Shown in pieces: positions 18,797 through 59,610 of a DNA stretch of 64,000 nucleotides. The DNA is from Dehalococcoidia bacterium (GTDB lineage: Bacteria; Chloroflexota; Dehalococcoidia; Bin125): assembly GCA_963662615.2 (NCBI GenBank), contig CAXXSR010000001.1:320001-384000 (forward strand), given 5' to 3'. The translations under genes and the position numbers were made by a program. How positions within the stretch are numbered: position 1 is the stretch's first letter; every line of letters starts with the position of its first letter. Under the pieces are notes generated by a model. The model made no database searches. It worked only from the letters and a program-made list of their open reading frames with translations, and was not told where the DNA came from.

Positions 18797-20630
18797 AGCC
18801 CCGGTAGGCAGCGCCGCTCGTCGTTCGACTTTTTCGCCCGCGCTCGCGGTTGGTCCGTACCAGGGCAGCGTTCGTGACCGCTCGCGCCAGGGCTTGACGA
18901 TCAGGACGATGTCGGAGCCGCTTAACGCAAGGCGCTCTCGCGCTGATGGCGCGGACGATGTCGAAATAGGCCACGACGACGCCCACGATGAGCAGCAGCG
19001 CGAAGCCGGTGAGGTGGACCAGCCCCTCTCGCTCCGGTGAGATGCGCTTGCCGCGACGGGCGATCTCGATCAAGACGAAGACGATGCGGCCGCCGTCGAG
19101 CATGGGCAGCGGCAGGATGTTGAGGATCGCCAGGCTGAGGCTGAGCCACGCCGCCAGCTCGATCAGGCGGAGCCAGCCCGCTTGCTCCACCACCTCGCCC
19201 GTGGCCTGCGCCAGTCCGATAGGGCCCTGGACGCGCAGCCCCTCCCCGCCCGCGATCCAGGAGCGGATGCGGTTGCGAACCACCGTGAGGGTGTTCACCG
19301 TGCGATTCCAGCCGGTCTCCACGGCGGCGAAGAAGCCCTCCCCATGCTTCGTTGTGGCGCCGCTGCGGTTGGCAATGGAGATGCCCGTGGGGCCCTGACG
19401 AATGCTGATCTCCGTGCCGGGCGGGAGGTTCACAAGGTCGATGCCGGCGGCTTGCAGGACGGTCTGGGTTGGGAAGCCGAGGTCCCGCCCCACGCTGACC
19501 GCCGTGTCTCCCGGCTGGATGAGGTAGGATTCGCCGCCGGGCAGGGCGAGGGTCACGCCCGCGGGCAGCGCCACGCCACGGCCCAGGCCGACGGCGCTGA
19601 GCACCTGGCTGGCGGTGAGCCCGAGCGCGTCCGCTACGTCATGGACCGTCTCGCCGGGCTGGACCACGTGCTCCAGGCGCTCCGGCGCCAGCCGCGCGCG
19701 GACCGTGGTGACGAAGGTCTCCGTGACGGTCGTGCGACGCTGCGAGGCGCCTTCCTGCGCCACGTCGCGCTCCACGACGACATCGAGGTCCTCGCCCAGG
19801 TTGAGGTTGATCTGGAGGACAACATCGGGGCCGTTGCGGATCTCCTTCCCGTTGATGCTGACGAAGCGGTCGCCGGGTTGCAGCCCGCTCTGCGACGCGG
19901 GACCGCCCTGGATCACAGAGGTGATCACGGCCGGACCCGCGGAGATGGTCTGCGGGATCAGGGCGGCGATGGCGAAGAGGATGATGGGCAGGATCGCGTT
20001 GACGCCGGCGCCTGCGGCCAAGACGAGAATGCGGATCCGGCGCGGCTTGGCGGCCAGCGAGCGCGGGTCGGGCGTTACCTGGAGGCCGGCGATGCGGCCC
20101 ACGGTCGCAGCGGCGCTCTCGTCTCGCTCCGCGGGAGCGGGCGGCGACGGCGGTGCGTCGGCGTTGGGTTCGCCGACTGCAAGCAGCACGTCCTGTTCAA
20201 CGAGCTGGCTGCCGCTGGGCGCGTCCTCTGGGCGCTCAAGGGTCAGCGCAATGGTCCCCGCGGAGGCGGCGCGTCTCAGCTCCGCGGCGAGCTTCTCCTG
20301 CGAATGGACCGCTTTGTCGTTGACCTTGGTGATCACGTCGCCGGTGGCGATGCCGGCGCGGCCGGCAGCGCCCTGGGCGTTGACCTGACCCACGTACACG
20401 CGCGCGCTCTCTTCGCCGGTGAGGCGCACGAAGCCGCCCAGCGGCAGCCAGTTGATCGAATAGAGGGTCTCGCCGAAACGCTTGCCCCAGATGCGCGGGG
20501 GGAACCCCACGCCGAACTCCTCCACGCGCACGCCCGACAGTTTGGCGACGACGTAGTGGCCCAGCTCGTGCAGGACGACGAGGCCGACCAGGATGCCGAT
20601 GAAGGGAAGGACGGCTTGCAGCACGACCAT
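18696..20630 (-). CDS. rseP: RIP/M50 metalloprotease RseP with PDZ and LysM-like domains (true stop probably at 18922)
   Basis: [30 protein letters not shown] overlap with dxr. Confidence 0.9.
18828..18905 (+). repeat. diverged copy of the 82-bp repeat
   Basis: TTTTTCGCCCGCGCTCGCGG...CCGCTCGCGCCAGGGCTTGACG. Confidence 0.55.
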
Positions 20631-21793
20631 CAGACGCGCACCAAGCAGTCGGCGGCGTAGCGCCGCGCCCAGGCGTCGGCGGCGTCGATGGTCTCCAGGT
20701 CGGGGTCGTCCACGGCCTCGTGGGCGTTCAGCGTCGCCGCAATCATGTCCGCGATCTCCGTGAAGGTGATGCGGCGGTCCAGGTACGCGGACACAGCGAC
20801 TTCGTCGGCCGCCGCCATCACGGCGGGAGCGGTGCCACCCTGGCGCCCGGCCTGCATTGCCAGCTGCAGACAAGGGTAGCGATCGAGGTCAGGGGCTTGG
20901 AAGGTCAGGGTCCCCAGCGCCGCCAGGTCCAGCGGCTCCACCGTGGGCTGGAGCCGGTCAGGGTAGGTGAGGGCGCACTGAATGGGCAGACGCATATCCG
21001 GCTTGCCCAGTTGCGCCTTGACGGAGCCATCCGACATCTCCACCAGGGAATGCACGATGGATTCGGCGTGTTGCAGGACCTCCACGCGCTCGTAGGGCAC
21101 GTCGAAGAGCCAGCGGGCCTCAATGGTTTCCATGCCCTTGTTGAGGAGGGTGGCGCAGTCGATGGTGATCTTCTTCCCCATGTTCCAGGTGGGGTGCTGG
21201 AGCGCGCGCTCCGGGGCCACGTCTGGCAGCGCCTCGAGGGGCAGGTCGCGCAGGGCGCCACCCGAGGCTGTTAAGATGATTCGACGGATCTCGTTCCGTT
21301 CCTCACCCCAAAGGCACTGCCAAATGGCGCTGTGTTCGGAATCGACGGGGCGCAGCTCGCCACCGCCGCGGTCGGCGGCGGCCCGCACCAGATGGCCCGC
21401 CATCACCACGACCTCCTTGTTGGCGAGCGCGACGGCGGTGCCGCGGTCGAGGGCGGTGAGGGTGGGTTCCAGGCCCGCCCGCCCGGCGGTCCCCACCATG
21501 AGCACATCCAGATCGTCGTCGGAGGCCATCTCCTCCATGGTCGCGATGCCGGCGCCGACTTCGGTGGCGATGGCGTGGAGGGTATCGAGGCCGTCGCCGT
21601 GGCGGCCGTCGTTGGCCCAGATGTAGCGGGGCCGGAACTCACGCGCCTGCTGGGCCAGCAGCTCCAGGTTGCGGCCAGCGGCGAGCCCCTGCACCTGGAA
21701 GTGGCCGCGCAGGGTGCGGATCACGTCCAGCGTCTGGGTCCCGATGCTGCCGGTGCTGCCTAGGAGGGTGACGCGGATCAGAGGACGAACCAT
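20630..21793 (-). CDS. dxr: 1-deoxy-D-xylulose-5-phosphate reductoisomerase
   Basis: LGSTGSIG, LANKE, PVDSEHSAI, HPTWNMGKKITID. Confidence 0.96.
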   Translation of the reverse strand: MVRPLIRVTLLGSTGSIGTQTLDVIRTLRGHFQVQGLAAGRNLELLAQQAREFRPRYIWANDGRHGDGLDTLHAIATEVGAGIATMEEMASDDDLDVLMVGTAGRAGLEPTLTALDRGTAVALANKEVVVMAGHLVRAAADRGGGELRPVDSEHSAIWQCLWGEERNEIRRIILTASGGALRDLPLEALPDVAPERALQHPTWNMGKKITIDCATLLNKGMETIEARWLFDVPYERVEVLQHAESIVHSLVEMSDGSVKAQLGKPDMRLPIQCALTYPDRLQPTVEPLDLAALGTLTFQAPDLDRYPCLQLAMQAGRQGGTAPAVMAAADEVAVSAYLDRRITFTEIADMIAATLNAHEAVDDPDLETIDAADAWARRYAADCLVRV

Positions 21794-22695
21794 TGCACAA
21801 AGAAGTATACCGTTGGCACCCCGAGCAGAAGGCTGTCAAGCCGGTCCAGCACGCCCCCGTGCCCGGGAACGAGGTGCGAGAAGTCCTTCACCTGCAAGGC
21901 GCGCTTGACCACCGACCCCGTGAGGTCGCCGATCACCGCGACCGCGGGCAGCACCAGGCCCAGCAGGGCCATCTTCCAGAACGGCTGCTGGAGATCGGGG
22001 AGGAGGAGGTTGATCAGCACGACCGCCGCGAAGCCGAAAGCCAGGCCCCCCGCGGCCCCCTCCAGGGTCTTGCCAGGACTGATGCGCGGCGCCAGCTTGT
22101 GCACGCCGCCGAGGCTCCCGACCGCATAGGCGCCGGTGTCCGCGGCCATGACGGAGAAGGCGGCGAGCAGGAGCCACTCCAGGCCCTGGTCCAACTCCCG
22201 CAGGAGGATGAAATAGCTGCCCAACCAGCCGACGTAGGCCAGCGCCACGATGCCCGAGGCGGTGCGCGTGTAGGCGGTGGCGAGGGGGCGTGCGCCGCCG
22301 CCGCGCCGCGCCGCCCAGCCCTCTTCGACGGCGGGGGTGGCGACGACGGCGATCAGCGCGGCGGTGAAGGGCCAGGCGGTGGGGACGTCGTCGATCAGCG
22401 CCACGGCGACCATTGCGGCGGCGCCGGCGGCGGCGAGCCAGGGGACGGGGTCGCGAAGGCCGAGGCCCATGCCCGCGGCCAGCTCGTAGACCGCCACCGC
22501 CAGCAGCAGCGCCACGAAGGCGGCGAGGTAGGGGCCGCCCTCCCGGATCAAGATGACGACGACGGGGGCGGCCACGGCGCCGGTCAGGAGGCGCCGCGCC
22601 AACTGGGAGGCCACGATCTGCGTCCAGGCGGCCCCGTGCGCGGACCGGCCGACCCTGACGTGTCGGGACAGAGGGGCGGGCAGGGACAGAGGCAC
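21778..22695 (-). CDS. cdsA: phosphatidate cytidylyltransferase
   Basis: DTGAY, ISPGKTLEG, KDFSHLVPGHGGVLDRLDS; start uncertain. Confidence 0.93.
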   Translation of the reverse strand: MPLSLPAPLSRHVRVGRSAHGAAWTQIVASQLARRLLTGAVAAPVVVILIREGGPYLAAFVALLLAVAVYELAAGMGLGLRDPVPWLAAAGAAAMVAVALIDDVPTAWPFTAALIAVVATPAVEEGWAARRGGGARPLATAYTRTASGIVALAYVGWLGSYFILLRELDQGLEWLLLAAFSVMAADTGAYAVGSLGGVHKLAPRISPGKTLEGAAGGLAFGFAAVVLINLLLPDLQQPFWKMALLGLVLPAVAVIGDLTGSVVKRALQVKDFSHLVPGHGGVLDRLDSLLLGVPTVYFFVQWFVL

Positions 22696-59134: not shown

Positions 59135-59185
59135 CTGATCGCCTTTCGGCCGGCGGACGTGGTAATCCGCGGCAGCCACGATACA

Positions 59186-59610
59186 CGGTTTTTCGCCCGC
59201 GCTCGCGACTGGTGTCGGCCACCGCGGCGTTGGTGGCGGCTCGCGCCGGGGGTCGAGGGTCTAGGCGATGTCGGCGCGGTTCGCCCTTCGACAGGCTCAG
59301 GACGAACGGTTTTTCGCCCGCGCTCGCGGGTCATCCGGGGTCGCGCGGTGTTGGTGGCGGCTCGCGCCGGGGGTTGAGGAGTGGGGCGGTGGTCCTCCGT
59401 TCGCCCTTCGACAGGCTCCTTCGCTGCGCGAAGGACAGGTCAGGACGAACGGTTTTTCGCCCGCGCTCGCGACTGGTGTCGGCCACTGCGGTGTTGGTGG
59501 CGGCTCGCGCCGGGGGTTGAGGGTCTAGGCGATGTCGGCGCGGTTCGCCCTTCGGTCCTTCGACAGGCTCCTTCCGAGGACGGAAGGACTGGTCAGGACA
59601 GGCGGGCTCA
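59186..59610 (+). repeat. alternating 82-bp/REP-like array (3 modules)
   Basis: TTTTCGCCCGCGCTCGCG at ~59189, 59311 and 59454, each followed by CCCTTCGACAGGCTC. Confidence 0.88.

Follow-up and report, generated by a model that had tools for sequence, protein, structure and literature searches.

Why should every copy of a short intergenic repeat point the same way, whichever way the neighboring genes are read? The question is raised by a 64,000-nucleotide stretch of DNA from a Dehalococcoidia bacterium (assembly GCA_963662615.2, contig CAXXSR010000001.1, positions 320,001 to 384,000 of the forward strand), which we call the window. Its gene gaps hold copies of an 82-bp unit, Y, mixed with a second repeat, module X. 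Together, 49 of 49 modules (23 Y and 26 X) lie on the + strand, in ~13 separate intergenic regions spread over ~40 kb. Intergenic repeats are common, yet the described repetitive extragenic palindromes and bacterial interspersed mosaic elements (REP/BIME) form inverted pairs, and a set of modules that all run one way is unusual. The first-pass annotation of this DNA, made from the letters alone, had reported a uniform orientation of Y irrespective of the flanking genes; this holds for 23 of 23 Y copies and extends to 26 of 26 X. Our preferred interpretation, which we put somewhat short of probable, is that Y and X form a lineage-specific, non-coding and non-autonomous interspersed mosaic repeat that disperses strand-specifically and amplifies locally.

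The Y unit, module X and their mosaics

We searched the window with an nhmmer profile built from eight array units and counted copies at E<1e-4. This recovered 23 full or near-full copies of Y and three short 5′ fragments (49263, 49365 and 53592), all on the + strand, in agreement with the earlier claim of a family of more than 20 copies; every position listed in the first-pass annotation was found again. The copies start at 18827, 26666, 26830, 42359 (a half unit), 42521, 43639, 43721, 43803, 43885, 43967, 45470, 45737, 45884, 49176, 49282, 49387, 55455, 56822, 56904, 56986, 59189, 59310 and 59453. The 31-nt core of the first-pass consensus gave 17 matches at up to three mismatches, again all +, and none in 100 shuffles.

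The unit consists of two diverged 41-nt halves, and Tandem Repeats Finder (TRF) detected the corresponding 41-bp sub-period. Copies are highly alike, with a mean column identity of 80%. Alignment revealed invariant columns in the T-run, CGCGCTCG and GCTCGCGCC, and the spacing between the latter two is exactly 33 nt in all 22 copies that bear both. There are two 3′ variants, one of which reads GATGAGC, and they are mixed across clusters. The strand of Y that lies on + is G/T-rich and its sense contains TGATGA; the opposite sense is open in all three frames. Directly to the left of the unit, 18 of the 23 copies have CGG or CGGC as the last bases of the flank, be that flank X, Y or unique DNA.

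From left to right, the first copy is a diverged solo unit (18827..18904; nhmmer E=1e-6) located 31 nt past the ispG stop, within the 3′ extension of the rseP frame. Next come two units (26666-26746 and 26830-26910; cluster 26666..26910), each bracketed by X, in the gap from which rpsB (-) and a zinc-ribbon gene (+) diverge. A half unit (42359-42412) and a full unit (42521-42601; cluster 42359..42601) are interleaved with X immediately downstream of sucD, and the gap from the sucC stop to the sucD start holds five head-to-tail units that repeat every 82 bp and include three identical ones (43639..44047). Three more (45470, 45737 and 45884; cluster 45470..45961), separated by X, D9 and palindrome modules, are upstream of both sucC (-) and a + gene starting at 46160. 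At 49176..49461, three units and two duplicated 5′ fragments of 22-25 nt make up a 105-bp higher-order repeat; five copies had been claimed at 49178-49460, and the repeats are present, but only three are full units and the other two are these fragments. A 20-nt 5′ fragment follows X modules at 53592..53611; on its own it is a weak match (nhmmer E=0.74), and it belongs to repeat family D15, at 97% to the reference. Further to the right, a solo unit (55455..55530) is followed by X modules and lies 94 nt upstream of the start codon of an amidohydrolase gene (55360, -), three head-to-tail units with alternating 3′ variants were found by nhmmer and TRF at 56822..57063, and three units (59189, 59310 and 59453; cluster 59189..59520) alternate with X between an aminotransferase and a GNAT gene, both on the - strand.

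Module X (26 nhmmer matches in the window, all +) is a hairpin-type repeat with CCGTTCG/CGAACGG arms and a loop of the TTCGACAAGCTCAGGA type; its D9 variants carry an inner CTCCTTC..GAAGGAC hairpin. It adjoins Y, which nearly always has an X to its right, and both modules end in CGG. Matches to X were found at 26324..26838 (five, also seen in the alignment), 41683..42652 (five, the last abutting the sucD stop codon), 45557..46115 (four, three of them in a Y-less tandem shortly before the + gene that starts at 46160), 53446..53589 (three), 57077..57136 (to the right of the Y array) and 59272..59596 (three, alternating with Y). The repeat families as well as nhmmer mark X at 49477..49540 (D9 variant with the nested hairpin), 55544..55719 (three matches, then a palindrome module of the CCCCCTCTCC..GGAGAGGGGG type) and 58427..58484 (D9 variant, in the gap between the GNAT gene and amidohydrolase_2). 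D9 and D20 modules of the same mosaic also occur without Y at 36354..36505 (+), between tRNA-Ser and a miaB-like gene. The TRF arrays and the interleaving of Y with X bear out the description of the family as one of arrays and mosaics. Near-perfect palindrome modules (CCCCCTCTCC...GGAGAGGGGG type), with arms of 11-18 bp, were observed at 45630-45680, 36411-36455 and 55675-55719, and these are the only parts of the mosaic with clearly strong hairpins.

Since the 82-bp period is not a multiple of three and the copies fall outside gene bodies supported by Pfam, the Y and X units are non-coding, and a coding repeat was rejected on the same period. An assembly artefact was likewise rejected: the copies differ in a patterned way and sit in unique flanks.

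As to known families, a search of the whole window against Rfam at the gathering score matched only tRNA-Ser, and in the region 42300-46100 at E<=1 it returned only two chance microRNA matches, on a palindrome. Strings of 14-15 nt taken from the units had no match in full-text literature. These results agree with the suggestion that the family was undescribed, and it is a real family, apparently new to the literature and strictly one-way over the window. A blastn search of plasmids with an X-Y-X-Y stretch returned only two short X-like matches, in Variovorax and Comamonas. The X-like sequence of Variovorax paradoxus (CP063167.1, segment positions 19951-20050) is 87% identical over 52 nt and, in this betaproteobacterial replicon, forms an inverted pair in a convergent gap, which is the usual REP-like layout and unlike the one-way copies of the window.

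In form, the family resembles REP/BIME, with which Y and X share short GC-rich sequences that can be drawn as imperfect palindromes, an intergenic position, many copies, mosaics with other motifs and a copy number that varies per locus. As described in two accounts, REPs are palindromes of 20-40 nt with a 5′ GTAG or CGTC tag, mainly arranged as head-to-head or tail-to-tail pairs, with head-to-tail dimers negligible (PMC3733652, PMC3333891). Y differs as follows: its consensus has GAC/GACG 5′ of the stem and neither tag, the unit measures 82 bp rather than 20-40, and Y and X are all head-to-tail, with 0 of 23 and 0 of 26 copies, respectively, on the - strand. No inverted pairs were seen, as the first-pass annotation had anticipated in setting the family apart from REP/BIME; among the 25 longest of 93 inverted-repeat pairs, none involves Y or X and two involve palindrome modules. 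Nor was a RAYT gene seen among the window translations that we scanned. The pneumococcal BOX elements are modular, intergenic and non-coding, with one module that can be repeated in tandem. Y and X are likewise short intergenic non-coding modules, one of them repeated in tandem, and show no sequence relationship to BOX. To our knowledge, BOX elements have not been reported as uniformly oriented along a chromosome.

Array growth, dispersal and rearrangement

How did the copies come to be where they are? Within clusters, the answer is local duplication. TRF delineated two arrays with an 82-bp period, one at 43639-44051 with 5.0 copies and 97% matches, the other at 56816-57070 with 3.1 copies. 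It also delineated a higher-order array with a period of 105 bp (49176-49458), in which the repeated unit already bears a 22-nt internal duplication. Conversely, the copy at 42359 lacks exactly the second 41-nt half. Mean identity between Y copies is 0.889 within clusters vs 0.782 between clusters. Together, these patterns show that the arrays grow and shrink by tandem duplication, through slippage or unequal crossing-over. The 22-nt duplication itself involves the 5′ end of Y (the T-run plus GCGCGCTCG; 49258-49306 and 49365-49411), with its junction at the CGG that precedes every T-run, and points to either microhomology-mediated slippage or insertion after CGG within another unit.

Between clusters, the relationships cross the map. 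For 12 of the 23 Y copies the nearest relative is in another cluster. The pairs 43639/26830 and 56904/43639 are 95% identical at distances of 12-17 kb, with unrelated genes between them, and the diverged copy at 18827 falls in with the 59189 subtype, at a distance of 40 kb. Near-identical copies are thus found in unrelated intergenic regions many kilobases (up to ~30) from each other, which shows that the unit also disperses.

The repeats also mark a rearrangement. A 243-bp direct duplication of 87% identity (55298-55540 and 56667-56910) flanks a methyltransferase gene, and each copy holds a Y unit, a leader and, from the amidohydrolase, its initial 20 codons (MPYDLLIRNG...). A stop terminates the second copy a short way before the methyltransferase gene begins; it looks as though that gene had been inserted into the 5′ end of the amidohydrolase gene. 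This duplication shows that recombination around Y/X repeats reshuffles genes.

Explanations for the shared orientation

What, then, sets the direction of the modules? Third-codon-position GC skew is +0.165 in the + genes and, on the coding strand, -0.288 in the - genes, so the + strand is G-rich whatever the gene direction. Cumulative GC skew climbs near-monotonically over the window, with a single 4-kb bin (12001-16000) at -0.005. The window therefore represents one replichore, and its + strand is, by the usual rule, the one exposed as lagging-strand template. Every module carries its G/T-rich strand on this G-rich strand, which fits a single-strand mechanism acting on the lagging template.

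If Y and X are a dispersing mosaic of the kind we favor, dispersal would be strand-specific and act on the strand exposed as lagging-strand template. It would be carried out by an enzyme encoded elsewhere, for which the best-known precedent would be a single-strand transposase of the HUH/Y1 type. Insertion would take place directly after a CGG(C) end, and because X and Y both end in CGG, we propose that such insertion could give rise to head-to-tail arrays. Y is found in slack DNA between the stop of one gene and the promoter of the next, even inside a core operon, and the element would probably be selfish or near-neutral rather than a host signal. Among - strand genes the order within gaps is constant, namely gene start, Y, X and then the stop of the next gene rightward, so the modules occupy the space that separates the end of one gene from the promoter region of the next. 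In our reading, a promoter between Y and the start codon is plausible for sucC and the amidohydrolase, and a scan for promoter-like sites found none.

The IS200/IS605 family offers a precedent for such a mechanism. Its members are described as having subterminal hairpins and neither inverted ends nor target duplications, and as inserting mostly in the orientation of the lagging-strand template (PMC5027513, PMC6006769). Y similarly lacks terminal inverted repeats, and target duplications are not visible at its copies. It has a segment near its left end that could form a hairpin, a short constant left flank (CGG, though this may be part of the Y unit itself) and a uniform orientation on the strand that serves as lagging-strand template. 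It differs in that no tnpA, tnpB or full-length parent element was seen in the window and in that the hairpins of Y lack covariation support. We know of no spacer-less tandem arrays described for this family.

Several results weigh against a strand-specifically dispersing element. We scanned 131 window translations (44 + 17 + 70, the last set being 70 of the 116 frames in unassigned regions) and found no transposase, HUH, Y1_Tnp, OrfB, RAYT, recombinase or integrase domain, a result that also matches the earlier prediction of an enzyme gene lying outside the window. No target duplication was seen at Y copies and no empty site was demonstrable. At 82 bp, Y is smaller than the miniature IS200/IS605 derivatives known to us. 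To look for relatives, we scanned 185,579 species genomes with a spaced pattern of 20 specified bases that 22 of the 23 window copies satisfy. The scan yielded 59 single matches in 59 unrelated genomes; when scored by the family HMM, none was better than E=2e-4 or 17.8 bits, so we consider them chance matches. Thus, no second genome with the Y family was found among these genomes, and mobility between lineages receives no support.

The hairpins that a single-strand enzyme of this type would require gain no support either. The first-pass annotation had drawn a bulged hairpin in the first half and a GCTC..GAGC pairing in the second. The first can indeed be drawn, with standard pairs in 86% of 320 cells, but it shows no covariation and folds like shuffles; the second is present in copies with the 3′ GATGAGC and missing from the other 3′ variant in the alignment. 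Likewise, a 31-nt imperfect palindrome can be drawn in Y, with helix 1 pairing in 84% of cells. The expected base-pair covariation did not appear: the two-hairpin model has 16 pairs, none of them with a compensatory change, and its score is equalled by shuffled controls, although copies at 80% column identity are too similar to decide the matter. The RNAalifold covariation term is +0.35, and neither strand of Y, treated as DNA or as RNA, outperforms dinucleotide shuffles in folding (z -1.5 to +0.8). Minimum-energy folds vary between copies, and the right-hand stem (4 bp, or a G-U-rich 7 bp) is weak and differs from copy to copy. In the diverged copies at 18827, 59189 and 59453, the central inverted repeat is kept in a shifted register, which, from the alignment and counting as two events, is suggestive of structure. 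A two-hairpin fold is possible; what Y conserves is its primary sequence with fixed spacing.

The bolder version of the dispersal idea would make Y and X a new kind of replication-polarised mobile DNA, in which short tag-less modules are copied only onto the lagging-template strand by a single-strand enzyme so far not associated with substrates of this sort, or else a polar mark that has been co-opted by the host. We regard this as possible but doubtful. If it is true, copies should be co-oriented within each replichore and flip at ori and ter. Polarity that tracks replication would provide a natural replichore marker in an uncultured phylum and could lead to an enzyme that acts on single-stranded DNA and has new substrates.

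The main rival holds that orientation is set by transcription: copies in the sense direction would be polar in operons and purged, leaving the antisense ones to survive. This is rather unlikely in our judgment. In its favor, all six co-directional gaps with copies are (-,-) and carry their modules on + (sucC-sucD, cupin-amidohydrolase, amidohydrolase-methyltransferase, methyltransferase-amidohydrolase_2, amidohydrolase_2-GNAT and GNAT-aminotransferase). Because the window is one replichore and these gaps all run the same way, replication and transcription predict the same orientation, which also counts against reading the polarity as a mark of replication. There is no (+,+) gap longer than ~200 bp in the window, and none bearing copies. 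On the + strand, X-Y and Y-Y junctions read as a GC-rich hairpin followed by 5-8 T, the T-run is nearly invariant, and two X-Y junctions are terminator-like (42347 and 42509). The five-unit array inside sucC-sucD implies that the modules are no strong terminator in the sense of the genes that contain them. Against this, terminator-like sites in 42000-61000 number 6 vs 10.2 +/- 3.5 in shuffles, and only two of the six are at X-Y junctions; a GC-rich stem plus T-run is not enriched over chance, so these junctions do not qualify as terminators. Moreover, the T-run belongs to the 5′ end of the unit, and no T-run follows the final unit of an array. The only leverage comes from the gaps where transcription should leave orientation free: the clusters in three divergent gaps and one convergent gap are all + (chance 1 in 16). 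The + genes at 46160 and 49617, moreover, are preceded at 45-230 nt by modules in their own sense. Should polarity nevertheless track transcription, the family would show selection filtering repeat insertions inside operons.

Conservation of sequence rather than pairing could also reflect a protein that binds double-stranded DNA, with Y as a binding array and a polar chromosome-organising or partition-like signal; recognition would be by way of invariant blocks containing GCTCGCG, which recur every ~41 bp, on one helix face. The fixed 33-nt spacer, the strict polarity of Y and the 41-bp sub-period speak for this. The placement of copies, however, looks opportunistic, in any slack intergenic DNA, and their number is variable, with half units and fragments among them. 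Moreover, the copies are young and similar, so their conservation may reflect age, and no candidate binding protein is linked to them. We know of no precedent for a polar signal made of 50-80-bp modules repeated tens of times in 40 kb, and we consider this explanation improbable.

A role at the RNA level is less probable again. It would take the form of structured + strand RNAs (small or antisense), or of a translated frame that couples operon expression. As RNA, the + strand of Y is more stable than the - strand by 10 kcal/mol in all 20 of 20 copies; as DNA, it is the more stable in 16 of 20. In the RNAalifold stem at columns 49-72 G-U pairs are possible on + only, with changes from U-G to U-A. 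This advantage is expected from the G/T-rich composition, however; z lies near 0 on both strands and the minimum-energy folds vary. Neither the Rfam search nor the promoter scan of the window lends support. Coupled translation has a parallel in mycobacterial interspersed repetitive units (MIRUs), which, in the account of PMC12548453, insert at start codons with a coupled open reading frame. Within the five-unit array, a 135-codon frame (43665-44074, -) begins with an ATGA overlapping the stop codon of sucC, crosses all five Y units and ends 120 nt before the sucD start; it is the only such frame we examined. MIRUs are also tandem units of 40-100 bp in operon gaps, run in one direction, and have a repeat frame that abuts the flanking gene, as the ATGA does at sucC. 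The frame may represent MIRU-like coupling or a relic of an original sucC-sucD overlap. It has no protein relatives (0 matches), though, and at 70% GC a frame that stays open for 82 nt is nothing unusual, even with the - sense of Y open in all three. Y further differs from MIRUs in its period, which is not a multiple of three, in having copies in divergent and convergent gaps, in the absence of sequence similarity and in the host phylum.

Finally, co-oriented units between small accessory genes at 53-60 kb (GNAT, cupin and methyltransferase) and a first hairpin that allows a drawing with one bulged G and one bulged T recall integron attC sites in a cassette array without an integrase, but we give this hardly any credence. 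attC sites have inverted core sites R''/L'' and L'/R', whereas the ends of Y are not inverted repeats; AAC is absent from its consensus, in which GTTG occurs twice in direct orientation, so that an R''/R' box pair cannot be written. Three to five units can follow each other without spacers in tandem arrays, the sucC-sucD gap and the region upstream of rpsB also hold copies, and no integrase was found among the scanned window translations. attC was rejected for want of the inverted core sites.

Host chromosome and neighboring features

What kind of chromosome carries these modules? The window has ~70% G+C. Its SucD is 65-69% identical to proteins of Dehalococcoidia and Tepidiforma, and further relatives come closer, at 81-84%; on this protein similarity, the host is an uncultured Chloroflexota bacterium. 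Pfam identified core chromosomal genes (nusA-infB-rbfA-truB, proS, ispG, rseP, dxr-cdsA-uppS-frr-pyrH-tsf-rpsB, nadABC and sucCD), and from 46 kb onward a series of smaller enzyme genes, mostly on the - strand. The first-pass annotation had placed the copies at accessory-gene junctions. Some are indeed there, but the family is not confined to them, since gaps between core genes hold five units (sucC/sucD), two (upstream of rpsB) and one (ispG/rseP).

The repeats leave their mark on these genes. Arrays inflate core operons, such that sucC and sucD are separated by ~525 bp, and repeats create spurious or extended reading frames, a point relevant to the annotation of such genomes. An example is the rseP (Peptidase_M50) frame, which continues for ~96 codons (18696-18986, -) beyond the end of its Pfam domain at residue 629 of 725, crosses the Y copy at 18827 and enters the 3′ end of ispG on the opposite strand. 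This copy seems to have displaced or removed the original rseP stop.

Other features of the window were observed in passing. The cluster at 45.5-46.1 kb adjoins a gene for a 520-aa protein that resembles a secreted alpha/beta-hydrolase (weak NCBIfam matches and a twin-arginine-like N-terminus). Toxin-antitoxin-like pairs, one of a HigB-like toxin with an HTH/Peptidase_M78 protein and one of HicA with a HicB-like protein, were found at 31893-33379 and 41738-42348. The two stretches around them have a lower G+C (about 0.65-0.66) and no reading frames with high third-position G+C, and one of these stretches is near tRNA-Ser (36516-36605); they are possibly small islands. In the gap between the HDOD and ECF-sigma genes (52334-52442), TRF detected a 12-bp G-rich unit (AGGGCCGGGGGC register) repeated nine times in tandem; its G-rich strand is the + strand, and it has a strong G-quadruplex potential. 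Each copy of this unit contains GGGCAGGG, which agrees with the consensus of the FtsK-orienting octamer of E. coli.

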